Positions 1,540 through 63,039 of a stretch of DNA of 64,000 bases are shown here, one piece after another. Under the pieces are notes generated by a model. That model did not search any database. It worked only from the letters and a program-made list of their open reading frames with translations, and was not told where the DNA came from. The stretch's first letter is position 1, and each line of letters begins with the position of its first letter. This stretch comes from an uncultured bacterium. Lineage in GTDB: Bacteria > Bacteroidota > Bacteroidia > Chitinophagales > UBA10324. Where the stretch lies: positions 4,833-68,832 of the forward strand of contig CAXBPY010000004.1 of assembly GCA_963977675.1 (NCBI GenBank), read 5' to 3'. The position numbers were made by a program, and so were the translations under genes.

Positions 1540-1585
1540 CAGCAATTAGTTTTTAGTTATTTGTAATAATTAAATACAAATACAC

Positions 1586-2215
1586 TTGCCTTTAATTTTT
1601 CAGGAAAAGTTTTCAGAATTTGAAATCGCTGTTTGGCGAATAAATGAAGATGAAAATTTTTTTCGGTTACAACTTCAACTCAGCGAAGAAGAAAAAATAT
1701 TTCTTCAAAACATAAAAGCTCCAAACAAAAGATTGGAGTGGCTGGCATCGCGCCACCTGATTCGTTCGCTTTTGAAAACAGATTTGTTTATTGACAGCAA
1801 CTTTAAACAAAAAGGAAAACCTGAATTGCTCAGCCATAAAAAGGAAATTTCTATTTCACATTCGTCGGGTGTGTGTGCGGTAATTGTGAGTGAAAAAAAA
1901 GCGGGGGTTGATATTGAACTGCTCGGAAGAAATGTTTCTTCCATGGCTCATAAATTTATTTCTGATGAAGAGAAAAAGAACCGCGAACTTACCGGTGATG
2001 AATTGCTTTTCATCTGGTGTGTGAAAGAATGTTTGTTTAAACTCTATGCAAAAGGCGGAGTGGATTTTCAACGCGATTTGTTTGCTGAACTTCCTATTGA
2101 AAAATCAGGAATCTCAAAAGCAGAAATCCGTAAAACAGATTTTTCGAAAACACTAACAATATATCACCGAATAATTGAAAATAATTTTTTGCTCTGCTGG
2201 ACAGTTGACAATTAG
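1586..2215 (+). CDS. 4'-phosphopantetheinyl transferase (Sfp-type)
   Basis: 209 aa, TTG start; motifs ISISHSSGVCAVIVS, GVDIE and WCVKECLFK typical of the PPTase superfamily. Confidence 0.8.
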   Translation: MPLIFQEKFSEFEIAVWRINEDENFFRLQLQLSEEEKIFLQNIKAPNKRLEWLASRHLIRSLLKTDLFIDSNFKQKGKPELLSHKKEISISHSSGVCAVIVSEKKAGVDIELLGRNVSSMAHKFISDEEKKNRELTGDELLFIWCVKECLFKLYAKGGVDFQRDLFAELPIEKSGISKAEIRKTDFSKTLTIYHRIIENNFLLCWTVDN

Positions 2216-2245
2216 TAATTGACAATTGACAGTTGACAATTGACA
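2204..2245. repeat. Tandem heptamer array (A/G)TTGACA x6
   Basis: GTTGACA ATTAGTA ATTGACA ATTGACA GTTGACA ATTGACA. The first units supply the last codons and the TAG stop (2213-2215) of the PPTase gene. Confidence 0.9.
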
Positions 2246-2279
2246 TCGTTCTTTCACCTTTGAGAAAAATATTTTCATT

Positions 2280-2711
2280 GTGAAAAAGCCAAAGCGCGAA
2301 GTGCTGGATGTGGAGTTTGATTTTAATTTCAAATTATTTGCACTCTCCACCACACTGCGTGACTACCAATTGTGTTATCAGATCAATAAAAATTTCCTAT
2401 ACAATCTCCGCCGGGTCAATGACATTGAAGTGAACCAGCCAAAGAAGCAAGTGGCATCTGTTCACAGTCATTTCAGTTTTTGCATTGAAGAATTGCAAAG
2501 AGAAATCCATCTTATAACAAACCATTCTAACGGAAGTTACTTTCTGTCTGAATTAAAAATTGCTGACTACTTGCTTAAATTAATGGGAGAAGTTTCGGAA
2601 GAGGAGGAAACCGAAATTTTAAATCGCTTGAGAAAGATTCAATCTGTTAATTTAGTAAAAGAGATTCCGGTGGATAGCATCAGGCAGAAGAATAATCTCA
2701 TCTTTGACTGA
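2280..2711 (+). CDS. Conserved Bacteroidota hypothetical protein (IPExxxVDY-family-like)
   Basis: 143 aa, GTG start; N-terminus [26 protein letters not shown] and C-terminal EIPVDSI resemble this family; function unknown. Confidence 0.65.
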
Positions 2712-2730
2712 CAAAAAAAATATTTCAGTT

Positions 2731-2964
2731 ATGTGGGAAGAAAAAAACAATGCACTCTGCAAAAAATTTCTCTTTAAAGATTTTTCAGAAGCATTCGCTT
2801 TCATGACAAGAGTGGCAATTATTGCCGAAAAAATGAACCACCATCCGGAGTGGAAAAATATTTACAACACAGTTGAGTTTCGCCTCAGCACGCACGATGC
2901 CGGTGATACTGTAACCGAACGCGATCACAAACTCGCTAATGCGATTGATGCGCTGAGTGCTTAG
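2731..2964 (+). CDS. phhB: 4a-hydroxytetrahydrobiopterin (pterin-4-alpha-carbinolamine) dehydratase
   Basis: [27 protein letters not shown]...STHD is the PCD/DCoH signature. I prefer the ATG at 2731 to the track's TTG at 2704, which overlaps the upstream gene. Confidence 0.88.
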
Positions 2965-2981
2965 AATTCTCCTATCACTTT

Positions 2982-2989
2982 TACATTTG
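2982..2989 (+). promoter_or_regulatory. Putative -7 box TACATTTG upstream of tRNA-Pro
   Basis: Exact TAnnTTTG followed by GCG, as at other promoters in the window; 106 nt upstream of tRNA-Pro. Confidence 0.4.
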
Positions 2990-3003
2990 CGTCCCTTCTT
3001 TAA

Positions 3004-3087
3004 AAAGTTATTCGGAATTAGTTATCGGTTATTGGTAATACAGTTGTTAGCATTTACGAATAACTAATAACCTATAACAAATAACGA
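3004..3087. repeat. Inverted pair of heptamer arrays (nnnGTTA x4-5 facing ATAACnn x4), forming an imperfect long palindrome
   Basis: AAAGTTA TTCGGAA TTAGTTA TCGGTTA TTGGTAA ... ATAACTA ATAACCT ATAACAA ATAACGA. The arms are about 70 percent complementary over about 30 nt. Confidence 0.85.
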
Positions 3088-3095
3088 AAGAATCA

Positions 3096-3169: not shown

Positions 3170-3173
3170 CATT

Positions 3174-3201
3174 TTAAGTTTCAGGTTCCGAGTTTCAAGT
3201 T
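3174..3201. repeat. Tandem heptamer array TCAAGTT-type x4
   Basis: TTAAGTT TCAGGTT CCGAGTT TCAAGTT, starting 5 nt after the tRNA-Pro 3' end; related to the tract at 25728-25748. Confidence 0.8.
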
Positions 3202-3235
3202 TCACATACTTCACATATTTATATTCGTCGCGATT

Positions 3236-4615
3236 ATGAGTAAGCAAAAACCATCTGTTCCCAGCGGCACAAGAGATTTTAATCCAACCCAGGTAGCTCG
3301 GCGCAGATTTATTTTCGATACAATACGAAGCGTATTTGAAAAATATGGATACCAGCCAATTGAAACTCCTTCATTTGAAAATCTTTCTTCTCTAACCGGA
3401 AAATATGGAGATGAAGGAGATCAGCTTCTTTTTAAAATTCTGAATTCAAGATTGCACGATGCGAAAGACAAAGACAAAATCAAAAATGATTTTGAGAAAA
3501 TGCTTTCAACTTCATTTAACTCTGAATATATAACTGAGCGTGCACTTCGATATGATTTAACTGTTCCATTTGCCCGTTATGTAGTAATGCACCAAAATGA
3601 AATTTCGTTTCCATTTCGCCGCTACCAGATTCAGCCTGTATGGCGTGCCGACCGGCCGCAGAAAGGGAGATACCGTGAATTCTATCAATGTGATGCGGAT
3701 GTTGTAGGGAGCAATTCGCTCGTTCTTGAAATGGAGTTGGTAAGAGTTTATGATGAAGTTTTTTCTGCTTTAAAAATTCCTGTTGTAATCAAACTCAACA
3801 ATAGAAAGATTCTTTCCGGAATTGCCGAAGCAATGAATGCCTCAGGCAAATTCACTGAAATCACAATTGCAATTGACAAACTGGATAAAGTTGGGTTGCA
3901 AGGTGTTCGGCAGGAACTTGCTGTTCGCGGAATCAGTGAGAGTCAGATGCAAACACTTGAAAAATTTTTCTCGCTAAAAGGAAATGCAACTGAGCAATTA
4001 CAGCAAGCCGGAGCATTGCTTGAGAATTCTGAAGCAGGAAAGCAAGGAGTGAGTGAATTGCAAACTGTTTTGAATTATCTCAGTGTAAGCGGCGCAACCA
4101 ATTTTCCGATTGAAATTGATTTCACACTCGCACGCGGATTGAATTACTACACCGGTGCCATCATTGAAGTGAAACCAACTTCCATTCAAATGGGAAGTTT
4201 AGGAGGCGGTGGTCGTTATGATAATCTCACCGGAATGTTTGGACTCGAAGGAGTGAGCGGTGTTGGAATTTCTTTCGGCGCCGATCGGATTTATGATGTC
4301 ATGGAAGAGTTGAATATTTTTCCGTCATCGGCATTGAATCAAACAAAAGTTTTGTTCTGCTGCTTTGATGATAAAGGGATTGAGTATTCGCTTCCGCTTG
4401 TTCAGCAACTGAGAGAAAAAAATATTGCAACAGAAATTTATCCTTCACCCGAAAAAATGAAGAAGCAGATGAAGTATGCAGATGACAAAAAAATTCCTTA
4501 TGTAATTGTGATTGGCGATAATGAAATGCAAACCGGAAAACTTGCTTTCAAAAACATGACAAGTGGTGAGCAAAAGTTACTTGCGTTCGAAGAAATAATT
4601 TCTTCTCTGGAATAA
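3236..4615 (+). CDS. hisS: Histidine--tRNA ligase
   Basis: 459 aa; GTRDF, class II aaRS motifs (RYDLTVPFARY, FYQCDAD, GGGGRYD) and a C-terminal anticodon-binding domain. Confidence 0.95.
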   Translation: MSKQKPSVPSGTRDFNPTQVARRRFIFDTIRSVFEKYGYQPIETPSFENLSSLTGKYGDEGDQLLFKILNSRLHDAKDKDKIKNDFEKMLSTSFNSEYITERALRYDLTVPFARYVVMHQNEISFPFRRYQIQPVWRADRPQKGRYREFYQCDADVVGSNSLVLEMELVRVYDEVFSALKIPVVIKLNNRKILSGIAEAMNASGKFTEITIAIDKLDKVGLQGVRQELAVRGISESQMQTLEKFFSLKGNATEQLQQAGALLENSEAGKQGVSELQTVLNYLSVSGATNFPIEIDFTLARGLNYYTGAIIEVKPTSIQMGSLGGGGRYDNLTGMFGLEGVSGVGISFGADRIYDVMEELNIFPSSALNQTKVLFCCFDDKGIEYSLPLVQQLREKNIATEIYPSPEKMKKQMKYADDKKIPYVIVIGDNEMQTGKLAFKNMTSGEQKLLAFEEIISSLE

Positions 4616-4616
4616 A

Positions 4617-4637
4617 TGTGAAAGGTGAAAAGTAAAA
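4617..4637. repeat. Heptamer tract TGTGAAA GGTGAAA AGTAAAA
   Basis: Begins 2 nt after the hisS stop; same GGTGAAA family as 42411, 44715 and 48818. Confidence 0.7.
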
Positions 4638-4652
4638 ACTTTGAATCTGGAA

Positions 4653-10235: not shown

Positions 10236-10294
10236 GAAACAAAATTCAATGTTTAAAAGTATAAACCGTCTTGCGAAAAGAAGATTATTGTTGC

Positions 10295-20411: not shown

Positions 20412-20612
20412 ATGAGAACAACAAGCACACAATTCATAACTGACGGCAAGGGCAACAAGCAATCTGTAATCATTTCTATGAAGGACTACAAAAAAATATT
20501 GGATGAACTTGAAGAACTTGAAGACATTAGAATGTATGATGAAGTGAAAAGCAGGAATGAAAAGAGTATTCCTTTTGATGAATATCTGAAAAAGAGAAAC
20601 ACAAAGAAGTGA
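20412..20612 (+). CDS. Type II antitoxin (RelB/Phd-like)
   Basis: 66 aa, acidic, directly upstream of and overlapping a RelE/ParE toxin gene. Confidence 0.75.
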   Translation: MRTTSTQFITDGKGNKQSVIISMKDYKKILDELEELEDIRMYDEVKSRNEKSIPFDEYLKKRNTKK

Positions 20613-20869
20613 TGCCTGTCTATAAAATTTTCATCACTTCAACTGCGCAGCATCAGTTAGACAAATTGCCGGAAAATGTTTCAATGATTCTTATTGAAAC
20701 CATTTCTAAACTGAGTAATAATCCGAGACCATTCGGTTGCAAAAAATTAAAGGGAAGAAACGGTTACAGAATCAGAAAAGGTGATTTTAGAATCATTTAT
20801 GAAATCACTGACAGAATTTTGCTTGTAGAAATAATTGCTGTCGGGCATCGGAAAAATATTTATGAATAA
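20609..20869 (+). CDS. Type II toxin, RelE/ParE family
   Basis: 86 aa; GYRIRKGDFRIIYEI...VEIIAVGHRKNIYE is the RelE/ParE C-terminal signature. The start is GTG 20609 or ATG 20612; both overlap the antitoxin stop TGA 20610-20612. Confidence 0.85.
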   Translation: MMPVYKIFITSTAQHQLDKLPENVSMILIETISKLSNNPRPFGCKKLKGRNGYRIRKGDFRIIYEITDRILLVEIIAVGHRKNIYE

Positions 20870-20923
20870 AAATCAATATGAAGCATTCATGAATTTCAAT
20901 TTTTCAATCTTCATTTTCGCCTC

Positions 20924-25724: not shown

Positions 25725-25727
25725 TAT

Positions 25728-25748
25728 CTAAGTTTCAAGATCCAATTT
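25728..25748. repeat. Heptamer tract CTAAGTT TCAAGAT CCAATTT
   Basis: Shares TAAGTTTCA.G.TCC with the tract at 3174-3201; lies in the rplY-pth spacer. Confidence 0.6.
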
Positions 25749-25758
25749 CAGGGGTTGA

Positions 25759-38349: not shown

Positions 38350-38472
38350 TAAAGTTTGGTTTGGTTAGTTAGGGAGGGAACAAAAAGCCGTTCGCAGGGG
38401 TGTGGGCGGCTTTCCCTTTTATAAGAAAGAATGATTGAAGAAAAATTATTTCGCGCCACTTACTTTCACTTC

Positions 38473-38817: not shown

Positions 38818-38845
38818 GATTTGAAAATCTGAAATTGAAAATTGC
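38811..38845. repeat. Degenerate heptamer tract GAAATGA GATTTGA AAATCTG AAATTGA AAATTGC
   Basis: Spans the stop of the upstream gene. It is followed by the -7-like TATTTTTA (38850-38857) and the GTG at 38862. Confidence 0.55.
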
Positions 38846-38861
38846 TCTCTATTTTTATTCG

Positions 38862-39878
38862 GTGAAAAAAGAATTACTTTTTTTATTCTTTATAGTTTCT
38901 GCTAAATATTCTTTTAGTCAAAACTATCATCCATTTCCAGATTCGATTGCTAGGTGGAGCGAATGCTCATTTTTTGTTGGAGCACAAACAGGAGGAAACA
39001 CATATGATATTCATAGAGGATGGTTTTATGCTTTAGGAAATGATACATTAATTAATTCAATCAACTACACATTAGTTGGTGTTCAAAGCACTTGGGATTA
39101 TCAGCTAGATAACGGGGTAGTGACTAGTAAACACAATTCACCAATTAATCCTCCGGGAGAAATTTTTGGAGCAATCAGAGAAGACAGTTCTAAAAAAGTA
39201 TGGTTCAGGAATTTTTTTCATAACATGAATGAATTGTATTTAAGGTGCGGCGGGCTATATGAATTAGCTGCTGATACCGAAATCTTGCTTTATGATTTCA
39301 ATTTACACCTAGGAGACACAATTCATTTTGGATCTACTTTCAGAACGGTATTGAATATTGACTCAATCATGTTTAGTGATGGTATTTATCGAAAAAGATA
39401 TCAGGTAGATTGGGGCGGTCCTTGCATGAATGACTATTGGATTGAAGGTATGGGGAGTTCACTTGGGTTATTTGGTGCATATGAGGCAGCACCATGCAGC
39501 CAGGACAGTTATCAAGGTTGCAGTATGAATTGCTTTTGGTTGAATGAAGAGAACATGATTTCATTTCCTAATTACTCTTCAATGGTAGAATGTGATTCCT
39601 CCAATTATCCATGGGGTGTGGGAATTGATTTAATTGATGAATCAGATCCGGAATATCATTCAATCAATGGGAAGAAAATTGTCTTTCATTTAAAAGACAG
39701 GGAGTTTCTCGAAAACGAAATAGAAATTTATAATGAAATTGGGCAGTTGGTTCTAAATCATAAAATCGAAAATCAAAATGTAGAAATGGATTTATCAAAT
39801 CTTTCTGAAGGAATCTATTTTTATCGTATTGCTGATGATTATTCAAAAACCTTGGTTGGGAAATTTTTTATAGAATAA
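38862..39878 (+). CDS. T9SS C-terminal-sorting-domain protein, function unknown
   Basis: A GTG start at 38862 gives the canonical signal peptide MKKELLFLFFIVSAKYSFSQ. The track start at 38814 would read through the heptamer tract. CTD EIYNEIGQLV...GIYFYRI...GKFFIE. Confidence 0.78.
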   Translation: MKKELLFLFFIVSAKYSFSQNYHPFPDSIARWSECSFFVGAQTGGNTYDIHRGWFYALGNDTLINSINYTLVGVQSTWDYQLDNGVVTSKHNSPINPPGEIFGAIREDSSKKVWFRNFFHNMNELYLRCGGLYELAADTEILLYDFNLHLGDTIHFGSTFRTVLNIDSIMFSDGIYRKRYQVDWGGPCMNDYWIEGMGSSLGLFGAYEAAPCSQDSYQGCSMNCFWLNEENMISFPNYSSMVECDSSNYPWGVGIDLIDESDPEYHSINGKKIVFHLKDREFLENEIEIYNEIGQLVLNHKIENQNVEMDLSNLSEGIYFYRIADDYSKTLVGKFFIE

Positions 39879-39952
39879 CCCATAATAAAAAACCACCTTG
39901 TAATAAAACTGCCGCAATCCATTAGGTTGTTATATGCCGATAATTAATTTTA

Positions 39953-40035
39953 ATAGGAGTCATAGGAGTTTAGATAGGAGTCATAAGAGTTTAAACTCCT
40001 AATACTCCTTTTGTTTTTACTCCTATAACTCTTAG
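39953..40035. repeat. Composite repeat: 21-nt unit x2 (ATAGGAGTC ATAGGAGTT TAG / ATAGGAGTC ATAAGAGTT TAA) followed by four inverted copies (ACTCCTA, ACTCCTT, ACTCCTA, ACTCTTA)
   Basis: Read directly; lies between convergent gene ends at 39878 (+) and 40048 (-). Confidence 0.85.
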
Positions 40036-40047: not shown

Positions 40048-42492
40048 CTAAAAATCCAGCTTGTAATAAAACAGTGGCAATCTTCCGAGTTGGTATTCAT
40101 AACGAATGGGTGAAGTAGTTCCCAATTGGTCGGGTGCGTAGGTGAGTTTCAAAATATTTTTTGTGTCGAGTAGGTTCACAATGTCAATTCCAATTTCATG
40201 AGAAACTTTTTTTCTGTTGATGCGGTAATTGATTTTCAAATCGGCGCGGAAGTATCCGGCAAACTGTTGTGTGTTCACGGTTGAGTCAATGTATGTCAGT
40301 TCCTTGAAGTAATCAGAAGCAAGCGTGTCCACACTGCCGTGCCATCTGCCGCCAGCCATCGTAATTTTTGTTCCGAGTTGCAGCGCATTTTTCTTTTTGA
40401 TGATAAACTCTTTCGCCAAAACAAAATTGCCCGCATACTGCCCGTTGAAATCAGTATTGCGCTGCACACCATCGCTGCCCGTGTAAAGCGAATTGAAAAC
40501 CGAAACTGTTAACAGAAAATAATAATTCTTGCTGAAACCTTTTTCGAGTGTTGCCTCTACACCGTAGTTCTCACCGGTGCCTGTGTTCTTCAGCGTGTCC
40601 GGAAAAAAGCGGCTGAAGCCCGCGCCCGTATTCACCAATGAAAAAGAAGAAGCATAAGTTGTGACAGGCACTTCATACAAATGCTGGTAGTATGTTTCTA
40701 ATTTCAGGTAAGTGTGCTTACCGAGTATGCGCTGGTAACCGAGCACTAAGTGTTCGCTCTTGGTTAATCCCATTTTCAAATTGTAAGGTGCTCCTCTATT
40801 CGCCGGGTCAAAGAAATACAAGTATGGTTGCTGAATCTGCGAATGAATTCCTGTTCCCAAACTCAACATATTTTTTCCAAACTCATATTGCAAGCCTGCA
40901 CGCGGCTCAACAAGCGAAGAACTATTGCTGAGTGAAAAATAAATGGCATGCCATCCGAGATTTATACTCAGCGCATCTGAAAATTTGTAACGCATTTGCA
41001 CATAAGGTTGAATCAACATCGCGTTGTCATTTGCATTCCAGCGATGATAAAAACTCCAGTAAGCATGAGTAAGTGTGTCAGCAGGAAGAATATTCCGGAT
41101 GCTGTCTTTGTAATTAAAAAAATATTCATCGGCATTCACACCGAGTTTGAAAGAAAGTTTGTTGCTCACCCTGTAATTAAGATACCAACCCACGCACGCT
41201 TTCGAAGTTGCGAAATTGTAACCGAGCAAGTGCACGAGTGAATCATTTACAAAAAGTGAATCGGCAGAAACATGACGATACACCAACTCGTGATGCGCAT
41301 TCTCTGCTTCGCCCTGCATCATGAAAGTTATTTTGGAAAATATTTTTTGCGAGAAAGATTTATTCATACTCAATCCAACCAAGCCCATCTTCGAGCGGAA
41401 ATACTGATCGCGGTCGTTCTCGCCGTAAATATTTACCGAAGGTTTTTTCTGATCGCTGATGAGGATATCCACTGCACTCATTCCGCCGAGACCAAAGAGC
41501 GAGAGGTTGAAATTTTTCTTCATCGGAAAATTCAAACGGAAACTTCCATCCTGATAATGCGGAATGGCATCAGTTCCGATTTTAATTCCAAGCGCACCAA
41601 ACAATGCAAGCGTGCTGTAACGGTAAGTAATCAGATATGAAGATTTTGTTTTCTTGCTGATGGGACCTTCAGCTAAAACTTCTGTTCCGAGAAAACCAAA
41701 CTGCCCGCTGAACTCATGATGCTCATTGTTTCCGTTTCGAAGTTTTAAATCGAAAGCACCCGCAACAGAATTTCCGAACTCAGCAGGAAAAGCGCCGGTG
41801 TAGAAATCAGAGTTCGCTAGAATTTTATTGTTGAGAATAGAAACCGGTCCGCCTGCCGTGCCGGGAATATTAAAATGATTCGGATTGAAAATGTCAACTC
41901 CTTCCACGCGCCACAAAACTCCTCCGGGAGAATTACCGCGAATCACAATATCGTTTCGTGAATCATCTGCCCCCTGCACTCCGGCGAAGTTGCTTGCCAT
42001 GCGTGCGGGGTCGCTTCGGCTGCCAGCATACAAATTTGTTTCGGCAACAGAAAAAGTTCGCGCACTCACCGTTGCCATTTCATTGCTGCTCTGCCCAACC
42101 TGACTTGCAGTGATTACAACTTCTTCCATTTGCTGCGCGCTTGATTCCATTTTCACATTAACTATTTCTTCTTTTCCAGAAGTAAGAATTATGTCACGCA
42201 TCCATGCGTCTTTGTAACCAACATAAATCAAATGCAAACTGTATCGACCGACAGTTATATTATCGAAACGATAACTGCCATCATCCTCTGTATATTTTCC
42301 TGAGACAGTAGAACTGTCCTTCATCAACACAACTGTTGCATCCAGCAGCGGATAATTATTCTCTGCATCTGTTACAACGCCGCGAATGGTTTGTGTTGGG
42401 GTTTGAGCTTGTGAAGTGAAAGGTGAAAAGTGAAAGGTGAAGAGGAATACAAGACCGAAGACAGAAGAGGGGAGACGGAAGATTTTTTTCAT
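40048..42492 (-). CDS. TonB-dependent receptor with N-terminal carboxypeptidase-regulatory-like domain
   Basis: 814 aa; IRGVVTDAENNYPLLDATVVL (CarbopepD_reg), plug motifs (DIVIRGNSPGGVLWRVEGVDI), C-terminal barrel ending YYKLDF. Confidence 0.88.
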   Translation of the reverse strand: MKKIFRLPSSVFGLVFLFTFHFSPFTSQAQTPTQTIRGVVTDAENNYPLLDATVVLMKDSSTVSGKYTEDDGSYRFDNITVGRYSLHLIYVGYKDAWMRDIILTSGKEEIVNVKMESSAQQMEEVVITASQVGQSSNEMATVSARTFSVAETNLYAGSRSDPARMASNFAGVQGADDSRNDIVIRGNSPGGVLWRVEGVDIFNPNHFNIPGTAGGPVSILNNKILANSDFYTGAFPAEFGNSVAGAFDLKLRNGNNEHHEFSGQFGFLGTEVLAEGPISKKTKSSYLITYRYSTLALFGALGIKIGTDAIPHYQDGSFRLNFPMKKNFNLSLFGLGGMSAVDILISDQKKPSVNIYGENDRDQYFRSKMGLVGLSMNKSFSQKIFSKITFMMQGEAENAHHELVYRHVSADSLFVNDSLVHLLGYNFATSKACVGWYLNYRVSNKLSFKLGVNADEYFFNYKDSIRNILPADTLTHAYWSFYHRWNANDNAMLIQPYVQMRYKFSDALSINLGWHAIYFSLSNSSSLVEPRAGLQYEFGKNMLSLGTGIHSQIQQPYLYFFDPANRGAPYNLKMGLTKSEHLVLGYQRILGKHTYLKLETYYQHLYEVPVTTYASSFSLVNTGAGFSRFFPDTLKNTGTGENYGVEATLEKGFSKNYYFLLTVSVFNSLYTGSDGVQRNTDFNGQYAGNFVLAKEFIIKKKNALQLGTKITMAGGRWHGSVDTLASDYFKELTYIDSTVNTQQFAGYFRADLKINYRINRKKVSHEIGIDIVNLLDTKNILKLTYAPDQLGTTSPIRYEYQLGRLPLFYYKLDF
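42411..42487. repeat. Eleven consecutive heptamer units inside the TonB-receptor signal-peptide coding region
   Basis: GTGAAGT GAAAGGT GAAAAGT GAAAGGT GAAGAGG AATACAA GACCGAA GACAGAA GAGGGGA GACGGAA GATTTTT (plus strand). The reverse strand encodes residues 2-27. Confidence 0.85.
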
Positions 42493-42602
42493 GAGAGAAT
42501 TTTTTGTTGACTCAAAAATTGTTTCGTGAATATGAAGTGGAGTTGACTTATGTCAAAAACTTTCCTTCAACAAGAAGCTAAATAATTTCTATAAAAAAAT
42601 TA

Positions 42603-43193
42603 CTACCTGTAATGATTCGCACGGATGTTTTTCGCTGCGAGTGAAATAGTTTCTTCAATTCGTTTGGCGCGTGTCTCCAGCCTTTTCGCTTCAGTTATCC
42701 AATGAAGAATTATTTTTTTTGAAGAGGGCGGAAACGCTTCGAAGTTTTTGAAAGCAGTTTTATTCTTCAGAAATTTTTTCTGAAGATCTTCCGGAATAAT
42801 GATGTTGTCAATTGCATCGAGCGCAAGCCATGTTCCGGTTTGCTTAGCGAGTTCAATCATTTCCATTCCTGCAGGAGCAATCAGTTTTTTCTTCAAAAGT
42901 TTTTCAACCCGCTCACGATTGAGTTTACTCCACTTGCTTTTCGGGTTTCGTTTCGAAAAAAATAAATAGAAACTTTCTGAATCGCGCTTGTTCGGTTTGC
43001 TGTCAATCCATCCGAAACACAATGCTTCTTCTACTGCTTCAGGATAGTAAACACTTTTTGTCGGCGATTGCTTTCGATAAATAATTAACCAAACATTTTT
43101 TTCTTTCAGATGATTTGCAGCAAGCCACTTTCTCCACTGCGCCCGCGTGGGAGCGTGAAATGTTTTGCTTCCGTTTTTCAGCGCTTCCTTCAA
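42603..43193 (-). CDS. YdeI/OmpD-associated family protein
   Basis: 196 aa; WRKWLAANH...VWLIIYRK...EEALCFGWIDS pattern; its start overlaps the stop of the upstream BNR gene by 4 nt. Confidence 0.75.
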   Translation of the reverse strand: MKEALKNGSKTFHAPTRAQWRKWLAANHLKEKNVWLIIYRKQSPTKSVYYPEAVEEALCFGWIDSKPNKRDSESFYLFFSKRNPKSKWSKLNRERVEKLLKKKLIAPAGMEMIELAKQTGTWLALDAIDNIIIPEDLQKKFLKNKTAFKNFEAFPPSSKKIILHWITEAKRLETRAKRIEETISLAAKNIRANHYR

Positions 43194-44785
43194 TGAATAA
43201 TTTTTTGCGTAAACGATTTTCCTTCTGAAAAAACAGTGAGAAGAAATATTCCGTGCGGCAGTTCGGTTAAATCAATATTCGCTTCAGTGGAGAAATATTT
43301 TTTCTCCATTATTTTTTTTCCGCTCATATCACTTACAATAATTTTTTCAATCGCATCGCCGCTGTTGGTGCGCACTGTAGATTTTCCATCAGAAGGATTC
43401 GGGAAAACAGAAATGAACTGCGACTCACTGGAAACAAGCGACACATTGGAAACGCAACCGTTGGTTGCTTTCATTCTTGTAAACCATATATCGAGCGAAC
43501 CATCGCGCGTGCTTCCCCATGCGGCGCTCAGTGTGTCATTACGCAAACACACACCCATAAAATCATTTCCGCTTTGCGAAAGAATATTGTTATACGCCAC
43601 CAACGAATCACTCAAATGAAAATTTGGAAAAAAATTGGCGGAGTCATGACATCGGAATGCGGCATAAAATTCTGAAGCGGTTGCATATCCTGTTCCCGCA
43701 GCATTCCGGCGATCGCGCCAGGTAATTACAAGGTCGCCGTTCAAATCAAAATCGCCCCACATCATATCCTGCATCACTCCGTTGTTTACTGCATCATCGT
43801 TTACGCGAACAGGCGAAGTCCAGTTTACTCCGGCATCAAATGACTCAATAAAATAGATATCAAAATCAGTGGACCCGCATGGGAAAATAAAACCAAGATG
43901 ATTTTGATTCGAAGGATCAGTGAGAAGTTTATATCCAAGCTTAGCTGAATCTGCTCCTCCGTTTGCAGTACAAATGTTCGAGGCAATAGCAGTATAATAA
44001 GCGAAGGAAGCCCCGTTGTTGGATGAGGAGGCAAGTATGTATTTCGGATAAATACTTTGTGAGGGGAGGTAACTTGGATACATCACAAAAAAATTATTTC
44101 CGCTGTAAGCCGGAGCAGGCATCGGTTGCGCAAGAATGTTTCCAACCAAAAATCCGGTTGTGTCAATATATCTCCATGGAAAAAAATTGGCTCCTCCATT
44201 TTCAGAATGCGCCATGTACGGGCGATTAGGAGGTGACACCCATGAAGGCGGTTTGCTTGTGACAAAAATTTTGTCACCTGCATTGTTCACTGCAATCCAT
44301 GGGCGATCAATTGGAAGTTTGTTCCCATCAGAGAGTCCGTCAATTGCCAGAACCGGTGCGCTCCAGTTCAAACCACCATTGGTTGATTTGCACACATACA
44401 CGCCACCTGAATCAGGACTCTGGCGGTAATCAATGTAACTGAGAAATAAATTTCCGCTGGCATCAAATGTCATTGACACATCAGCAGATTTAAAAGTCGG
44501 TCTCAGGTGCGGCATGTTCACTGCGTTGCTCCATGTTGCACCTCCATTGAAAGATGATTTCACTTTAATAGTGAGTCCGGTTCCCGAATTGAAAACAAAA
44601 CCCATCCAGGCAATCACCATGTTCTGTGTGTTTGTTGGATTCACGGCAATGTATGGTTCGCCATCAAAAACATTTCCGTTCGAAATGTCAATGTCTTGGG
44701 CAACTGAAGTGTTTGGTGAAAAGTGAAAGGTGAAAAGAAATAAGAGAAAGAAGATGGGTGAGGGATGAGGGATGAATCTTTTCAT
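43190..44785 (-). CDS. BNR/Asp-box repeat (sialidase-fold-like) protein with T9SS C-terminal sorting domain
   Basis: Asp-boxes SFNGGATWS, STNGGLNWS, SENGGANF, SFDAGVNWT; CTD VFPNPSDGKSTV...GIFLLTVFS. I prefer the start at ATG 44785 (MKRFIPH...) to 44809. Confidence 0.82.
   Translation of the reverse strand: MKRFIPHPSPIFFLLFLFTFHFSPNTSVAQDIDISNGNVFDGEPYIAVNPTNTQNMVIAWMGFVFNSGTGLTIKVKSSFNGGATWSNAVNMPHLRPTFKSADVSMTFDASGNLFLSYIDYRQSPDSGGVYVCKSTNGGLNWSAPVLAIDGLSDGNKLPIDRPWIAVNNAGDKIFVTSKPPSWVSPPNRPYMAHSENGGANFFPWRYIDTTGFLVGNILAQPMPAPAYSGNNFFVMYPSYLPSQSIYPKYILASSSNNGASFAYYTAIASNICTANGGADSAKLGYKLLTDPSNQNHLGFIFPCGSTDFDIYFIESFDAGVNWTSPVRVNDDAVNNGVMQDMMWGDFDLNGDLVITWRDRRNAAGTGYATASEFYAAFRCHDSANFFPNFHLSDSLVAYNNILSQSGNDFMGVCLRNDTLSAAWGSTRDGSLDIWFTRMKATNGCVSNVSLVSSESQFISVFPNPSDGKSTVRTNSGDAIEKIIVSDMSGKKIMEKKYFSTEANIDLTELPHGIFLLTVFSEGKSFTQKIIH
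44715..44784. repeat. Ten consecutive heptamer units covering the BNR-protein signal-peptide coding region
   Basis: GGTGAAA AGTGAAA GGTGAAA AGAAATA AGAGAAA GAAGATG GGTGAGG GATGAGG GATGAAT CTTTTCA (plus strand). Confidence 0.85.
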
Positions 44786-44881
44786 TATAAAATTTTTTTT
44801 GAAATCCAAAACCTATTGTGAATATCGAAACAGATGTGAAGTAATAAAATTATGATACAGACATAAGATGTAGATCATAGT

Positions 44882-47306: not shown

Positions 47307-47879
47307 TCAGCCAAGCCTTTTCAGAAGGATTCCTTCAATAAGTTCCGGGAGGAACTGCGGTTTCACAATTCTCCAATTGATTTCAGAAAATTTTTCACCC
47401 ATATAAATGAAATGCTCGAGGTGAACTCGGTGCATTTCCTCATATACATGCTCGCGGAAATTCACAGCAGCAATCCATCCGCCTTCTTCTGAAATATCTT
47501 CATACCATTCTTCATAATAGCAATCATCGGATGCATGAAAGTTCAAAACATTTTCTCCGATCAGCATGAACCGGTTGATTCCATTTTCAATAAACACATC
47601 AATTACTTCGCGCTTCAGAATCATAATGTCGTTGCTTAGTGCATCATTCCACTCACCAATCAATTCGATCACGGCAAAGCGATTTTCATAATCTGCAAAA
47701 AGAATTTTCATAAACAAAGTTGAAGAGCCAAACTCATCCCACTGAGGGTGTATGTAGAAATTGTAAATCTTGTTTGAGTATTCAAACTCACTGTAAGTCC
47801 GATGAAAGAATGGTGACCGCTTATCTTCTTCAGAAGTGTAGATATCTTTCCAGTTGTAATATGGTTCTATATCGTGCAA
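47307..47879 (-). CDS. Conserved hypothetical protein
   Basis: 190 aa, TTG start, no recognisable motif; coding-like composition. Confidence 0.6.
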   Translation of the reverse strand: MHDIEPYYNWKDIYTSEEDKRSPFFHRTYSEFEYSNKIYNFYIHPQWDEFGSSTLFMKILFADYENRFAVIELIGEWNDALSNDIMILKREVIDVFIENGINRFMLIGENVLNFHASDDCYYEEWYEDISEEGGWIAAVNFREHVYEEMHRVHLEHFIYMGEKFSEINWRIVKPQFLPELIEGILLKRLG

Positions 47880-47883: not shown

Positions 47884-47974
47884 TATCAGTTATTAGTAGA
47901 ATCGTTGTTAGTTATTAGCAATACAAAAATCTTCAATCATAAATATTCTAAAATCTAAAATCATAAATCTTAAA
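47884..47974. repeat. Two adjacent heptamer tracts: TTATTAG-type (47884-47918) and TCTAAAA-type (47947-47974)
   Basis: TATCAGT TATTAGT AGAATCG TTGTTAG TTATTAG ... TCTAAAA TCTAAAA TCATAAA TCTTAAA. The last unit contains the murQ stop codon. Confidence 0.8.
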
Positions 47975-48785
47975 TCTTGCGTTTGTGCATCTCCATCACT
48001 TTCCTCACACTTCCGAATTCAAGCAATATTCCTCTCGCTCTTTTATAATCCCATGCGAATTGCCGCATCAGCATTTTAGCACCGCGTTCAATCAGTTTTT
48101 CATTGGTGAGCTGCATGTCTACCATTTTGTTATCGAGCACTTTTCCCAACTGAATCATTACTGAAGTTGAAATCATATTGAGAACAAGTTTCTGTGCAGT
48201 TCCTGCTTTCATTCTGGTGCTACCGGTTACAAATTCAGGGCCCACAACTACCTCAACCGGGAAATCGCAAGCTGAAGCAAGCGGTGAATTCAAATTACAA
48301 GTGATTCCTCCTGTTTGAATTTTATTATTCCTGCATTGCTGCAACGCACCAATCACATAAGGGGTGGTTCCACTGGCTGAAATTCCAATTACCGTGTCAT
48401 TTTCATTCACACTATAAGATTGTAAATCTTTCCATCCCTGATTTGGATCATCTTCTGCAAACTCTTGCGCTTTTCGAATAGCTGCATCGCCGCCGGCAAT
48501 TATTCCATTTACTAATCCGTGTTCCACACCAAAAGTTGGAGGGCATTCGGAAGCATCTACAATTCCCAATCGTCCGCTGGTGCCACTTCCGAGATAAAAT
48601 ATTCTTCCGCCATTTTTCATTTTCGGAATAATATGATTCACTAAAGATTCAATTTGGGGAATGGATTTCTGCACCGCTTCGGCCACCGTTTTGTCTTCAC
48701 GATTTATATTGGAGAGCAGATCATGAACGCTCATTTGCTCTAATTGATTGTAGCGGCTATTTTCTTCAGTTGTTTTTTGCATCAC
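47970..48785 (-). CDS. murQ: N-acetylmuramic acid 6-phosphate etherase
   Basis: 271 aa; SIS domain GGRIFYLGSGTSGRLG, DASECPPTFG. Start is GTG 48785 or ATG 48782. Confidence 0.92.
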   Translation of the reverse strand: MMQKTTEENSRYNQLEQMSVHDLLSNINREDKTVAEAVQKSIPQIESLVNHIIPKMKNGGRIFYLGSGTSGRLGIVDASECPPTFGVEHGLVNGIIAGGDAAIRKAQEFAEDDPNQGWKDLQSYSVNENDTVIGISASGTTPYVIGALQQCRNNKIQTGGITCNLNSPLASACDFPVEVVVGPEFVTGSTRMKAGTAQKLVLNMISTSVMIQLGKVLDNKMVDMQLTNEKLIERGAKMLMRQFAWDYKRARGILLEFGSVRKVMEMHKRKI

Positions 48786-48787: not shown

Positions 48788-48795
48788 CAAAAGTA
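48788..48795 (-). promoter_or_regulatory. Putative -7 box TACTTTTG, only 5 nt upstream of the murQ ATG
   Basis: Exact TAnnTTTG on the minus strand followed by CGGTGATG. Confidence 0.45.
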
Positions 48796-48817: not shown

Positions 48818-48845
48818 GTGAAAGAAGAAAAGTGAAAGGAGAAAA
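48818..48845. repeat. Heptamer/14-mer tract TGAAAGA AGAAAAG TGAAAGG AGAAAAC
   Basis: GTGAAAG family; on the minus strand it lies just upstream of the murQ -7 box. Confidence 0.7.
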
Positions 48846-59710: not shown

Positions 59711-59711
59711 C

Positions 59712-60894: not shown

Positions 60895-60902
60895 CAAAAA
60901 TA
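60895..60902 (-). promoter_or_regulatory. Putative -7 box TATTTTTG (minus strand) for hmgA
   Basis: Exact TAnnTTTG on the minus strand. Confidence 0.45.
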
Positions 60903-60986
60903 ATGTGATCCGGCTAAGACAGATATGTATTGCATCGCGCACCTTAATTGTGCTTATTTACATTTACCGCAGAAAAATAATACAGG

Positions 60987-62066
60987 GTGATAATCGAAAT
61001 CAAAGTTCCGGTAGTCGGTGAATCCATAAATGAAGTGACGCTGGCCAAGTGGTTGAAAAAAGATGGTGAATCAGTTGTGCGAGATGAAATGCTGTGCGAA
61101 ATGGAATCAGAGAAGGCAACTTTCGAATTGAATGCAGAACAAAGCGGCAAACTGAAAATCATTGCGCAGGAAAAATCGGTTTTGAAAATTGGTGATGTGG
61201 TTGCATCGATTGATACAGAAAGTGCAGGAGTAGAATCAACTTCTTCTCCCGAAAAAAAATCTTCAACACCAAAACAAGTTGAAGAAAAAAAATCTGAACC
61301 TGAAGTTGAGCAGAAAAATATTTCGGTAGAACCAACCACTAGCCACCAGCCACCAACCACTAAACCCGGAACCCGCCGCGAGGCAATGAGTTCTCTGCGC
61401 AAAACTGTGAGTAAGCATTTAGTTGCAGCAAAAAATCAAACTGCAATGCTCACCACTTTCAATGAAGTGGACATGAGCGCGATTATGGAAATACGAGCGC
61501 AGTCGAAAGAACTCTTTAAAGAGAAGTACGGTGTGGGTTTGGGCTTCATGTCATTTTTTGTAAAAGCGGTATGCAAGGCAATCCAGGAATTTCCTGCAGT
61601 GAATGCAAGCATTGATGGCGACGATATTATTTACCACGACTACTGTGATATTTCCATTGCTGTTTCCACTCCGAAAGGTTTAGTTGTTCCTGTGATTCGC
61701 GATGCAGAAAAACTTTCGATGTCAGGAATAGAAATGAAAGTGGCTGAGCTTGCGAACAAGGGAAGAGAAAACAAACTTTCGATGCAGGAAATGAGTGGAG
61801 GAACATTCACCATTAGCAATGGCGGTGTGTTTGGATCGCTGATGTCAACACCCATCATCAACATTCCGCAAGTTGCAATTCTTGGAATGCATAAAATTCA
61901 GGAGCGACCTGTGGTGGTGAATGGAGAAATTGTAATTCGTCCAATGATGTATCTCGCGCTCTCGTATGATCACCGGATGATTGACGGAAAAGAATCTGTT
62001 TCATTCTTAGTGAAGGTGAAAGAGTATTTGGAAAATCCTTTGCAATTTATGATGAGTGAGATTTGA
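60987..62066 (+). CDS. sucB: Dihydrolipoyllysine-residue succinyltransferase (2-oxoglutarate dehydrogenase E2)
   Basis: 359 aa, GTG start; lipoyl domain ([12 protein letters not shown]), low-complexity linker, catalytic domain ([19 protein letters not shown]). No peripheral subunit-binding domain is recognisable. Confidence 0.9.
61329..61363. repeat. Heptamer array CCAC(C/T)A(A/G) x5 inside the sucB linker coding region
   Basis: GAACCAA CCACTAG CCACCAG CCACCAA CCACTAA, translated as [12 protein letters not shown]; same family as 63012-63039. Confidence 0.85.
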
Positions 62067-62090
62067 CAACTTTTTAAAAGTTGTCAAATC
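62060..62090. terminator. 31-nt perfect palindrome spanning the sucB stop codon
   Basis: GATTTGACAACTTTT-T-AAAAGTTGTCAAATC, all 15 arm positions complementary; no T-run follows. Confidence 0.55.
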
Positions 62091-62099
62091 TGACCCGGG

Positions 62100-62134
62100 A
62101 CTCATCCTTCATCTATCATCCTTCATCCATCCTT
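62100..62134. repeat. Heptamer array nnTCATC x4-5
   Basis: ACTCATC CTTCATC TATCATC CTTCATC CATCCTT, ending at the -7-like box TACTTTCG (62134-62141) before the engB ATG at 62146. Confidence 0.85.
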
Positions 62135-62145
62135 ACTTTCGCGGC

Positions 62146-62820
62146 ATGTTCAAAATAAATTTTGCAGAATACAAAGGCAGCTTCAGTACTTGGGACACTT
62201 GTCCGAAATTCAAAATCCCTGAAGTATCATTTATCGGGAGAAGTAATGTCGGGAAATCATCACTCATCAATATGCTGTGCGGCAGAAAAGATTTGGTGCG
62301 CGTGAGTAACACGCCCGGAAAAACTCAGTCGCTGAATTTTTTCTTAGTGAATGATAAGTATTATATGGTGGATATGCCCGGTTATGGTTTTGCACGCGTG
62401 AGTCAGGAAGAAAGAAAGAAATGGAAACGCATGATTGATAACTATTGTTTGAAGCGCGAGCAACTCGTGAACACATTTGTGCTGGTGGATGCGCGCCACG
62501 AGCCGCAAAAAATTGATATTGATTTTATCAAAACGCTTGGCGGATGGCAAACACCTTTTGCAGTTGTATTTACAAAAGCAGATAAAGTGAAGAGCGAACA
62601 GTTGAAAGCAAACCGCGCGCTCTTCGAAAAATATTTGCTGAGCGATTGGGAAACACTTCCTCCGATTTTCGTAACCTCATCAGAAGACCAAACCGGAAAA
62701 CAAGAATTGCTTGACTATATGGAGAAGTGCTACAACGCTTATGTGATTCCTCCAAAGAAGAAAGATGAGGAGTTGGCGAAGAATAAAAAACCAGCAGGTG
62801 AAAACAACAAGCGTGAATAA
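62146..62820 (+). CDS. engB: Ribosome biogenesis GTP-binding protein YihA/YsxC (EngB)
   Basis: Start at ATG 62146 (MFKINFAEYKG). G1 GRSNVGKSSLIN, G3 DMPGYG, G4 TKADK. The track's 30-codon N-terminal extension merely translates the heptamer array. Lys-rich C-terminal tail. Confidence 0.92.
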   Translation: MFKINFAEYKGSFSTWDTCPKFKIPEVSFIGRSNVGKSSLINMLCGRKDLVRVSNTPGKTQSLNFFLVNDKYYMVDMPGYGFARVSQEERKKWKRMIDNYCLKREQLVNTFVLVDARHEPQKIDIDFIKTLGGWQTPFAVVFTKADKVKSEQLKANRALFEKYLLSDWETLPPIFVTSSEDQTGKQELLDYMEKCYNAYVIPPKKKDEELAKNKKPAGENNKRE

Positions 62821-62832
62821 GAATTTTCATCA

Positions 62833-63003
62833 ATGGAACATCAACCAGAAAATGCAGATGAGAACCAAAAAAGAGTTAGAATCCTTCTTTACATATTGCT
62901 GTTTATTGCTGTAGTTGTAAGTTACTTTTTTGTAACAAGGAAAAATGAACCATATCAAGATTCTCGAAAGACAAATGATACTTTGATTATGGTTTCGCCT
63001 TGA
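62833..63003 (+). CDS. Possible 56-aa single-pass membrane protein (not in supplied track)
   Basis: MEHQPENADENQKRVRILLYILLFIAVVVSYFFVTRKNEPYQDSRKTNDTLIMVSP has an acidic N-terminus, one TM helix and flanking R/K residues. It starts 12 nt after engB. The competing minus-strand ORF 62830-63018 looks non-coding. Confidence 0.45.
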   Translation: MEHQPENADENQKRVRILLYILLFIAVVVSYFFVTRKNEPYQDSRKTNDTLIMVSP

Positions 63004-63011
63004 ACATGTAG

Positions 63012-63039
63012 CTACCAACCACTAACCACCAACCACGAA
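63012..63039. repeat. Heptamer array CTACCAA CCACTAA CCACCAA CCACGAA
   Basis: Same family as the sucB linker array. On the minus strand it supplies the last codons (FVVGG) and the TAG stop of the MBL-fold gene. Confidence 0.85.

Follow-up and report, generated by a model that had tools for sequence, protein, structure and literature searches.

Why does a stretch of bacterial chromosome carry, at one gene boundary after another, short tandem arrays whose units differ in sequence but share a length of seven nucleotides? The stretch in question, hereafter the window, comprises 64,000 nucleotides (39% G+C) from the chromosome of an uncultured freshwater Bacteroidota bacterium (GenBank contig CAXBPY010000004.1, positions 4,833 to 68,832), and a preliminary description had listed 19 such tracts in it. 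We found that dispersed tandem heptanucleotide arrays are real in this genome. With three to seven copies each, they are very probably heptanucleotide simple repeats, microsatellite-like in character, of the kind known as short tandemly repeated repetitive (STRR) sequences and long simple sequence repeats (LSSRs). As to their origin, the explanation that we favour, with a probability of about 0.5 for the whole of it, is that they arose in place by slippage of units, survive where the sequence is unconstrained and have no dedicated partner.

The window encodes housekeeping proteins (HisRS, IspF, RpoB, ribosomal proteins L1, L10 and L12, and others) together with the type IX secretion proteins PorV, a C25 PorU-like peptidase and PorP/SprF. 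Proteins of the window are present unchanged in several metagenome assemblies and in the metagenome-assembled genome (MAG) GCA_003455275.1, and the closest species representatives are freshwater Chitinophagales MAGs whose HisRS is 66-81% identical. A further contig, L003, is 100% identical to the window over positions 1-2270 and supplies 8.4 kb further upstream, which brings the sequence of this genome in hand to 72.4 kb. The Bacteroidota sample used for comparison amounts to 2.29 Mb from 161 sources (about 160 loci), nearly all of them Bacteroidota, and is made up of 80 hisS loci from species representatives, 80 murQ-like loci from metagenomes and the 72 kb of this genome.

Within the window, Tandem Repeats Finder (TRF) returned 50 rows, 16 of which had period 7 and represented 15 distinct arrays. 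A diagonal scan (match +1, mismatch -2) gave nine period-7 tracts with a score of at least 9, against 0.45 expected from dinucleotide shuffles, and 0-3 tracts for periods 4, 5, 8, 10, 11 and 13 at the same threshold. At a score of at least 13, three period-7 tracts remained and none in the shuffles; a strict test of at least 18 of 21 matches gave four and none, respectively. The lag-7 autocorrelation proposed in the preliminary description as a check was run on the pooled spacers of this genome (7.7 kb) and showed peaks at lags 7, 14 and 21 (z = 3.3, 4.0 and 4.2), and a lag-7 stretch with at least 15 of 21 matches was present in 8 of 42 spacers, compared with 0-2 spacers for lags 5, 6 and 8-11. 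Composition is ruled out as the cause by the dinucleotide shuffles and the behaviour of the other periods. Taken individually, 14 of the 19 listed tracts were supported as period-7 arrays, four were weak and one was unsupported. We also considered that the arrays might simply be products of the commonest heptamers, and rejected this idea, the units being only moderately common as single copies.

The preference for this period extends beyond the window. In the Bacteroidota sample, period-7 tracts occurred at 5.46 per 100 kb and period-8 tracts at 3.54, against 0.9-1.75 for periods 4, 5, 10, 11, 13 and 17, and this genome, with 13 tracts in 72.4 kb, carries about 3.3 times the sample average. 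The period, rather than a motif, is the shared property, as had been claimed, but a strict tie to seven does not hold, since period 8 is enriched in other Bacteroidota. The density of period-7 tracts in the hisS set was 3.39 per 10 kb in spacers versus 0.21 in gene interiors (16-fold), and inside genes, too, period 7 was more numerous than other periods. Inverted array pairs that form hairpins were common for periods 7 and 8; inverted octamer pairs such as TGTTGAAA / TTTCAACA make long spacer hairpins in other Bacteroidota (L024 14812-14904, L030 2189-2312, L077 1124-1223, L137 9362-9470 and L160 4688-4835). Long perfect arrays also occur in other members of the phylum (L017 13540-13619 and L079 19947-20048).

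Nearly all array sites of the window lie at gene boundaries. The sites comprise spacers, tRNA and mRNA leaders, two signal peptides, an inter-domain linker and one C-terminus, which bears out the earlier statement that the tracts sit at gene boundaries and spill into coding sequence. Coding arrays were seen only in permissive places: three signal peptides of this genome, the linker of its E2 protein and a variable loop of HisRS. The last case concerns Sphingobacteriales, in which two variable loops of HisRS hold in-frame heptamer arrays that are kept between species at the protein level; units of CTCACAA, for instance, read LTTHNSQLIT in three Mucilaginibacter species. The loci with such arrays are L016, L022 and L024 (at about 10246-10276) and L018, L023, L030 and L035 (near offset 850 of hisS).

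Within the species, the arrays are invariant, with identical copies in eight or more strain-level assemblies. Twelve alignments to independent assemblies, at 97-100% identity and with up to 50 differences each, contained no substitution and no indel in any covered array, and the variation of copy number among strains that had been suggested as a check did not appear; whole-unit changes were seen only between species. Relatives from a different species or genus, at 65-81% protein identity, have another array in the orthologous spacer, sometimes of period 8, or no array at all. A metagenome scan for murQ relatives at strain level, with a best match 81% identical, informed on turnover and not on polymorphism. 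Upstream of hisS, where this genome has an array of TTTCAAG, relatives carry AACAATC AACTATC AACTAAT: L006 has AACTATC AACTAAT, and L008 and L011 have exactly one 7-nt unit more, while in L005 the seed TTTCAAG stands as a single copy at the site of 4.7 copies in this genome. Two Arcicella species at about 87% DNA identity share an inverted array pair in front of one and the same gene but differ in its copy numbers: an arm of near-perfect (ACTGCTA)n counts about 14.5 units in the first species and about 8.5 in the second.

We infer slippage as the generator of the arrays and the absence of a dedicated function. Each array would have grown in place from a local seed through duplication and loss of whole units, probably by slipped-strand mispairing in replication or repair. 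Arrays would persist only at sites that can vary freely, such as spacers, leaders, promoter-upstream DNA, signal-peptide cores, a linker and a C-terminal tail. As they are short and imperfect, they would be past measurable slippage, and hence fixed within a species and replaced over longer distances. No dedicated trans-acting partner would be needed, and effects on expression, such as an unstructured G-poor leader or a hairpin where arrays are inverted, would be incidental.

The STRR heptamers, which the preliminary description had named as the closest analogue, are an apt comparison. They were reportedly described by Mazel and colleagues in 1990 from heterocystous cyanobacteria (Calothrix, Nostoc/Anabaena), and the units of STRR1-3 are CCCCAGT, TTGGTCA and CAACAGT. 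The window resembles them in its tandem 7-nt units, in several families per genome, in dispersed and mostly intergenic sites and in the lack of an established function; as judged on 72 kb, this genome does have more than one family (D3 and D5, see below). It differs in phylum and in its units, and its arrays are much shorter (3-7 units) and degenerate. The host is a member of the Bacteroidota with type IX secretion genes, which places the arrays outside the STRRs in the strict sense, and the units of the window (TTGACAA, GTGAAAG, CCACCAA, TCATCCT, TCTAAAA and TAACTAA) do not match the canonical STRR1-3 units.

Heptanucleotides are, according to Mrazek, Guo and Shah (2007) as cited in two later papers (PMC4679880, PMC4692102), the most abundant class of long simple repeats in most prokaryotic genomes, and polymerase slippage, with the footprint of the polymerase as explanation, is cited there as the proposal for them. 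The genomes that Mrazek named as rich in heptamers include Burkholderia and actinobacteria. The arrays of the window count as tandem repeats of 5-11-nt units beyond the chance expectation for the genome, in the manner of that survey, and share with its LSSRs the over-representation of 7 nt among tandem repeats, mainly in non-coding DNA. They differ in that the survey counted long near-perfect arrays, while those of the window are mostly short and imperfect, and in the period-8 enrichment of other Bacteroidota. The belief that no equivalent had been described for Bacteroidota proved mistaken, for MacGregor (2015, PMC4679880) reported TAACTGA repeats in Beggiatoaceae, cyanobacteria and five Bacteroidetes, with other heptamer direct repeats, and proposed S1, Csp or CsrA binding for the TAACTGA repeats. 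Here as there, heptamer repeats stand in Bacteroidota spacers, often directly before start codons, and the cores CTAA, AACT and TAAC, which recall TAACTGA, may be over-used by units of the Bacteroidota sample; the reported forward-orientation bias, however, was unseen for AACT-core arrays of the Bacteroidota sample (3 vs 5 in orientation relative to genes). No tandem TAACTGA exists in the window, where the best match (3018-3031) needs two mismatches and was equalled by 35 of 100 shuffles. The GGGAATC repeats of Xanthomonas and the GGGGA(T/C)T repeats of Nostoc are intergenic, with some inverted pairs, and their length differs between close species (Rehm et al. 2015, PMC4692102). They resemble our arrays in standing between the same genes in related species while differing in length and sequence, but their units are G-rich and quadruplex-forming, whereas those of the window are AT-rich and G-poor on one strand.

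Recurrence of units at unlinked sites, another claim of the preliminary description, was recovered by a repeat finder, in whose grouping the GTGAAAG sites form family D3 and the TTGACAA sites form family D5. Of 76 pairs of arrays from this genome, 12 have units no more than one mismatch apart, compared with 4.2% of pairs from different organisms. The arrays at 42411 and 44715 are not independent events, because both lie inside a segment, D2, that is present twice (window 42403-42518 and 44696-44811; 116 nt, 73% identical) in two unrelated genes for secreted proteins and extends over the 5' untranslated region and start codon as well as the signal peptide (...LFTFHFSP...). Apart from D2, no flanks are shared between arrays.

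A gene upstream of the window offers a candidate partner. On L003, a gene for a 128-aa protein (L003 2650-3036) that ends 5.4 kb upstream of window position 1 belongs to PF05635/TIGR02436, the 23S rRNA intervening-sequence protein or S23p, a four-helix bundle. The closest solved structure is that of X. campestris XCC0516 (entry 2GSC, five chains), and the family includes Avd of diversity-generating retroelements (PMC10053308). The gene sits after an FAA_hydrolase gene in a cassette (L003 2596-3145) bounded by inverted arrays, ATTGAAG/ATTGAAA to the left of the gene and, twice, its reverse complement to the right; in the predicted fold the arrays pair and enclose the open reading frame (ORF; -138 kcal/mol, z = -2.9). 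The cassette resembles the 23S rRNA intervening sequences (IVSs) of Coxiella and Leptospira (PMC4990558) in having a PF05635 ORF within stem-forming terminal inverted repeats and heptamers directly upstream. It differs in that cassettes of this type lie between protein-coding genes and not in rRNA, and in that both arms consist of tandem units, while the arrays of the window have no ORF and are mostly single direct arrays, the one at 3004-3087 being an ORF-less hairpin. In the Coxiella IVS, two to three GACAGAT repeats, variable among strains, precede the S23p ORF, and RNase III cuts at the first repeat (PMC4990558). Except for this case, we found no link of the PF05635 family to heptamer arrays in the open-access literature.

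A PF05635 profile was built from 120 homologues. Searched against the small ORFs of the 2.29-Mb sample, it found two further members only (L015 8180-8721 and L028 8640-9128), and both are bracketed by inverted heptamer arrays, of AGTAGCT (as exact reverse complement) in one case and AAGTCTT in the other. The same profile search found no member among the window ORFs of 70-260 aa, and with three genes against 125 arrays, more than 95% of the arrays in the sample have no PF05635 gene within 10 kb. After these first three loci, 16 further test loci were fetched, the whole collection covering Bacteroidota, Cyanobacteria and Gemmatimonadota (L003, L015, L028, L177-L182, L183-L190 and L195-L198). All test loci except Calothrix L185 show arrays, and overall 18 of 19 loci have flanking 7- or 8-nt arrays, usually inverted. 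An ATTGAAR-type array on the left with its reverse complement on the right recurred in all five close homologues, which come from Algoriphagus, Chryseolinea and other Cytophagales. AAGTCTT-type arrays together with their complement bracket all four homologues of the AAGTCTT gene that were taken from Mucilaginibacter and relatives. Of eight plasmid-borne genes found by tblastn, that of Calothrix alone is without arrays; the other seven are flanked by arrays of 7- or 8-nt units on at least one side. The units at these plasmid loci are AAAAGGG in Geminocystis, GGTTTAA in Riemerella, GGGTGTA in N. punctiforme and CTTCTGC in Nostoc PCC 7120 (two copies), while Pseudanabaena has (AAAAGCT)x17 and (AAAAGCC)x10 and Gemmatirosa the octamer GAGGGCAG.

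The first 15 loci were compared with 1788 control genes by a fixed criterion: within 130 nt, a lag of 7 or 8 had to give at least 16 of 21 matches. Eleven of the 15 had an array on one flank, against 7.9% of control genes (p = 7e-10), and eight had arrays on both, against 0.45% (p = 1e-15); counted by independent lineage, 7 of 10 passed (p = 2e-6). The unit is kept within a protein subfamily across genera, in six loci for ATTGAAR and in five for AAGTCTT, and on plasmid pNPUN01 of N. punctiforme the unit is GGGTGTA for one paralogue and GAAGTCG for another, 2.4 kb away. A 50-kb Riemerella sample contained two period-7 arrays, both flanking PF05635 genes; in a 50-kb sample of pNPUN01 all arrays but one adjoin such genes; and a 50-kb sample of the Geminocystis plasmid held the two flanking arrays and a related gene-less array 2.7 kb off. 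A scan of viral contigs for PF05635 relatives gave one locus, which was left uncounted, with arrays 185 and 435 nt away. The association of PF05635 genes with flanking 7- or 8-nt arrays in three phyla, with a unit specific to the subfamily, is strongly supported. For the gene-less arrays of the window, a link to the four-helix-bundle protein is only suggestive, a lead and not a result.

The gene neighbourhoods of these loci are varied. The PF05635 gene stands between trpE and trpG in Algoriphagus and Chryseolinea (L177 554-3021, L179 1-2344), between cas6 and cas4 in Pseudanabaena (L189 1-1142), and in Mucilaginibacter directly before tag, the gene for 3-methyladenine glycosylase (L195-L198 1501-2461), where the right array enters the called tag start. 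On pNPUN01 (L192 26797-27533), the XisH and XisI genes lie between two four-helix-bundle genes; a similar taxonomic distribution of TAACTGA repeats and XisH/XisI was noted by MacGregor (PMC4679880).

Several observations weigh against slippage at unconstrained sites as the full explanation. Slippage alone leaves the preference for 7 (and 8) nt over 5, 6, 9, 10 and 11 unexplained. Units recur within one mismatch in 13% of within-genome pairs of the Bacteroidota sample versus 4.2% of pairs between genomes, and the absence of substitutions in arrays compares with about 4-6 expected under an even spread, although the differences are clumped and the evidence is weak. The units of the phylum may over-use the cores CTAA, AACT and TAAC: AACT is present in 29 of 125 units against 9.2 expected, and the other two are over-used as well. 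When each of the 84 distinct units is counted once, an excess of 2.3- to 2.9-fold is left, and a correction for 128 tests leaves CTAA alone at borderline significance. In the last 100 nt before a start codon, arrays have more C than G on the sense strand in 33 cases versus 15. The arrays flanking PF05635 genes keep their unit across genera, and therefore those arrays at least are under selection; and in the 50-kb samples of Riemerella and N. punctiforme the period-7 arrays are nearly all beside PF05635 genes, so generic slippage must yield few there. A serious though tentative alternative is built on this protein family, in which the arrays would be cognate sites or decayed single ends of IVS-like PF05635 cassettes. 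Each subunit would contact one 7- or 8-nt unit, which would set both the period and the lineage-specific units; arrays flanking a gene would pair into the stem that encloses the ORF, and the gene-less arrays of the window would be trans sites or relics. The proposed model recalls TRAP, a ring-shaped 11-mer that binds 11 (G/U)AG triplets in RNA, in matching a symmetric oligomer to a tandem array with one unit per subunit, although TRAP has no homology to PF05635 proteins. In its favour are the cassette in this very genome with its predicted stem, the bracketing of all three members in the 2.29-Mb sample by three different units, the agreement of the fetched loci other than Calothrix L185, flank rates far above those of control genes, units kept within subfamilies and separate for paralogues, the concentration of Riemerella and N. 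punctiforme arrays at these genes, and the Coxiella repeats. Moreover, six of ten gene-less arrays of this genome are within one mismatch of ATTGAAR, versus 8 of 112 elsewhere (p = 1.2e-4, in a test chosen post hoc), and by this measure the unit families are not unrelated; ATTGAAA- or AAGATTT-type readings are available for 38811-38845, 20888-20915 and 47926-47978. Set against this, the window has no PF05635 gene and most arrays of the sample have none nearby; TTGACA and GTGAAA are internally consistent separate families and not scattered ATTGAAR variants; the gene-less Mucilaginibacter arrays (AACTCAC, AACTGCC) do not match the AAGTCTT of the one subfamily sampled there; and an ATTGAAR-ATTGAAR dimer with at most two mismatches is not enriched in the window (17 vs 12.9 expected), which weakens the idea of a single super-family. 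The wider proposition, that heptamer and octamer arrays in general, including the cyanobacterial STRRs and those of the window, are putative nucleic-acid partners of PF05635/TIGR02436 proteins with a subfamily-specific unit per subunit, we regard as rather doubtful.

The other explanations are less probable. It is unlikely that the arrays are cis-regulatory elements for another factor, for instance cold-shock-domain or S1 sites (about 7 nt per monomer), or, in a variant, promoter-upstream or leader modules that would tune transcription or Shine-Dalgarno-independent translation in Bacteroidota. Bacteroidota-type -7 boxes do follow three arrays at a distance of 0-23 nt, before genes that seem to be leaderless or to have a short leader, 17 of 73 gene-upstream arrays in the Bacteroidota sample stop no more than 10 nt short of the start codon, and the C excess on the sense strand and the S1/Csp/CsrA proposal of MacGregor point the same way; but the arrays are not conserved in the orthologous spacers of relatives, their units are many, and they also occur past stop codons, between convergent genes and in coding sequence. 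A promoter link as a general rule was rejected, a TAnnTT(T/n)G box being close to just 4 of 18 arrays, and so was a three-frame stop insulator, in which a stop-bearing unit would halt all frames (19 arrays in sense vs 19 in antisense). The lack of strand asymmetry for stop codons and for the AACT core argues against a signal at the RNA level. Very unlikely, too, is descent from one mobile element, be it a transposable element of the miniature inverted-repeat type (MITE), the end of an insertion sequence (IS) or a repetitive extragenic palindrome (REP), or chance arising from AT-rich composition. Two arrays do share the 116-nt D2, and inverted pairs resemble the terminal inverted repeats of transposons, yet the repeat families end at the array borders, D2 excepted, Rfam and tRNA searches of the window found three tRNAs and no other RNA family, and the shuffles and other periods exclude composition; the arrays are therefore not fragments of one longer repeat or IS end, an outcome that the preliminary description had named as refuting its view. 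Least probable of all is that the arrays are phase-variable contingency loci whose copy number switches neighbouring genes. Simple repeats near promoters and 5' gene ends are a classic substrate for phase variation, and long perfect arrays exist elsewhere in Bacteroidota, but this explanation is largely refuted by the invariance in 12 same-species alignments; the arrays are short and imperfect, and a 7-nt step in a signal peptide would be a frameshift, yet both genes are intact. In-place slippage with survival at unconstrained sites thus remains the explanation that we prefer.

By themselves, the arrays add one more case to a class of repeats that is known but poorly understood, and they are useful mainly as markers of strain or lineage. 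The process that generates them acts throughout Bacteroidota genomes, genes included, and writes the cores of signal peptides (FTFHFSP) and surface loops of enzymes (LTTHNSQLIT in HisRS). The PF05635 association supplies a candidate protein for the old question of what explains the 7-nt period and which purpose STRR-type repeats serve, and it merits a genome-wide test in its own right. If true, a common recognition of repeats would join three topics, namely heptamer arrays, Avd and diversity-generating retroelements, and the ORFs of 23S rRNA IVSs.

The individual arrays are described below in their gene context, beginning with those beside tRNAs and promoters. That the tracts stand next to tRNAs holds for two of the three tRNAs of the window, and that they lie just upstream of -7 boxes holds for three arrays only (3174, 48818 and 62100). 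The -7-type boxes, TAnnTT(T/C)G, are at 48788-48795 (- strand), 3220-3227 (+) and 62134-62141 (+), and belong to the murQ-like gene, hisS and a GTPase gene; because they are only 4-8 nt before the start codons (about 5 nt for the murQ-like gene), the arrangement suggests that these mRNAs are leaderless or have short leaders. A fourth array, at 3004-3087 (+), is downstream of its box, between the strict -7 box TACATTTG (2982) and tRNA-Pro (3096), and from this position the hairpin it forms is probably part of the tRNA-Pro leader. Listed as one tract, it is in fact an inverted pair of two arrays, of TTAGTTA type and then ATAACTA type, with 32-nt arms at 3007-3038 and 3047-3078 (inverted repeat I1), and the predicted RNA hairpin has -20.9 kcal/mol (z = -3.8). 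On the other side of tRNA-Pro, 4.7 units of TTTCAAG occupy 3172-3204 (+; listed as 3174-3201; TRF score 38) and lead up to the -7-like box of hisS, TATATTCG (3220). Downstream of hisS, in the 37-nt spacer between the convergent genes hisS and ispF, three units of GTGAAA(G/A) are present at 4614-4638 (listed as 4617-4637; family D3, scan score 9, lag-7 identity 0.79).

Family D5 has two sites. Six units of (A/G)TTGACA at 2204-2245 overlap the stop codon of an ACPS-like gene (1586-2215) and end 34 nt before the ORF at 2280 (TRF scores 57 for period 7 and 64 for period 14, scan score 16, lag-7 identity 0.74). Four units of TTGACAA at 33263-33290, detected by TRF and with a scan score of 11, begin 2 nt past tRNA-Ala and end 33 nt before the ATG of an M20 peptidase gene at 33324; they are identical in three other assemblies. 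A truncated tRNA-like copy lies at 33105-33165, 82 nt upstream of tRNA-Ala. It shows 90% identity across the 5' acceptor strand and D arm, differs in the anticodon stem, has lost the T arm together with the 3' end and was called by neither ARAGORN nor Rfam.

Near the murQ-like gene, the array at 48818-48845, identical in four other assemblies, consists of two copies of the 14-nt unit GTGAAAGAAGAAAA and ends 23 nt upstream of the strict TAnnTTTG box at 48788-48795; its period is mainly 14 nt (TRF score 49 at period 14, lag-7 identity 0.62). About seven units of TCTAAAA/TCTTAAA (reverse complement AAGATTT) at 47926-47978 (listed as 47947-47974) overlap the murQ-like stop codon upstream of a gene for 190 aa (47307-47879). 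TRF gave two rows for it, 47926-47977 and 47947-47978, the scan score is 16, and the array is identical in eight assemblies.

Two signal peptides have their cores written by the arrays at 42411-42441 and 44715-44784, which encode ...LFTFHFSPFTSQAQ and ...LFTFHFSPNTSVAQ. At 42411-42441 (- strand; TRF scores 45 and 56), four units, CTTTCAC on the coding strand, form part of the signal peptide MKKIFRLPSSVFGLVFLFTFHFSPFTSQAQ of an outer-membrane protein with CarboxypepD_reg (40048-42492), a reading supported by translation and Pfam. At 44715-44737 (-), three units of the same family, detected by TRF and placed by translation, lie within the signal peptide MKRFIPHPSPIFFLLFLFTFHFSPNTSVAQ of a type IX secretion substrate (ORF 43190-44809), whose start reads M-K-R at about 44785. 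The n-region of the same signal peptide is covered by TGAGGGA units at 44757-44784 (-; CATCCCT on the coding strand), of which just 2.4 are perfect (44759-44775, 100% matches in TRF; scan score 10). A third secreted protein of this genome (L003 7491-7610) has a similar signal peptide, ...FFIFHLSHFTSQSQ, encoded by a like array. A GTGAAAG array in Arcicella (L066) was considered as a further signal peptide and found unsupported.

In the E2 acyltransferase of a 2-oxoacid dehydrogenase, five units of CCAC(C/T)A(A/G) at 61329-61363 (+; TRF-detected, scan score 12) encode the linker that joins the lipoyl domain to the catalytic one (Pfam places the two at residues 4-75 and 128-356). The E2 stop codon is overlapped by a near-perfect 19-bp palindrome, GTGAGATTTGACAACTTTT / AAAAGTTGTCAAATCTGAC (62056-62094), and a heptamer array follows directly: four to five units of TCATCC(T/A) at 62100-62134 (+; TRF scores 39 and 53), between the palindrome and the -7-like box TACTTTCG (62134) of the GTPase gene, whose ATG is at about 62146. 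At 63012-63039, four units of CCACNAA (TRF-detected, scan score 10) cover the stop and last codons of a metallo-beta-lactamase-fold gene (63022-63792, - strand). The junction of the genes 38431-38817 and 38814-39878 holds about four ATTGAAA-like units with indels at 38811-38845 (+; TRF 38821-38844 with 21% indels, lag-7 identity 0.61).

The four weak stretches are, taken singly, indistinguishable from chance. They are 1541-1582 in the spacer 1540-1585 (lag-7 identity 0.57; absent from TRF and scan output); 20888-20915 after a parE-like gene (0.52), which reads AATGAAG ATTGAAA AATTGAA on the reverse complement and matches the ATTGAAR dimer with one mismatch; three units at 25728-25748 in the spacer 25725-25758 (0.57, no other detection); and 47884-47918 directly upstream of the 190-aa gene, with TAACTAA and TAACTGA-like words (0.50, no other detection). 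The listed stretch 44852-44879 was rejected, with a lag-7 identity of 0.38.

A few neighbouring features were also recorded. The gene pair at 20412-20869 encodes a RelB-like antitoxin and a ParE-like toxin. At 25579-25693, a coding repeat with periods of 9, 18 and 21 nt, unrelated to the period-7 arrays, encodes the Ala/Pro/Gly-rich tail of gene 25023-25724, at its 3' end. The spacer that separates the convergent genes 38814-39878 and 40048-42492 holds, at 39949-40012, a 21-nt tandem repeat of 2.2 copies and after it the inverted copy, which looks like a terminator hairpin.

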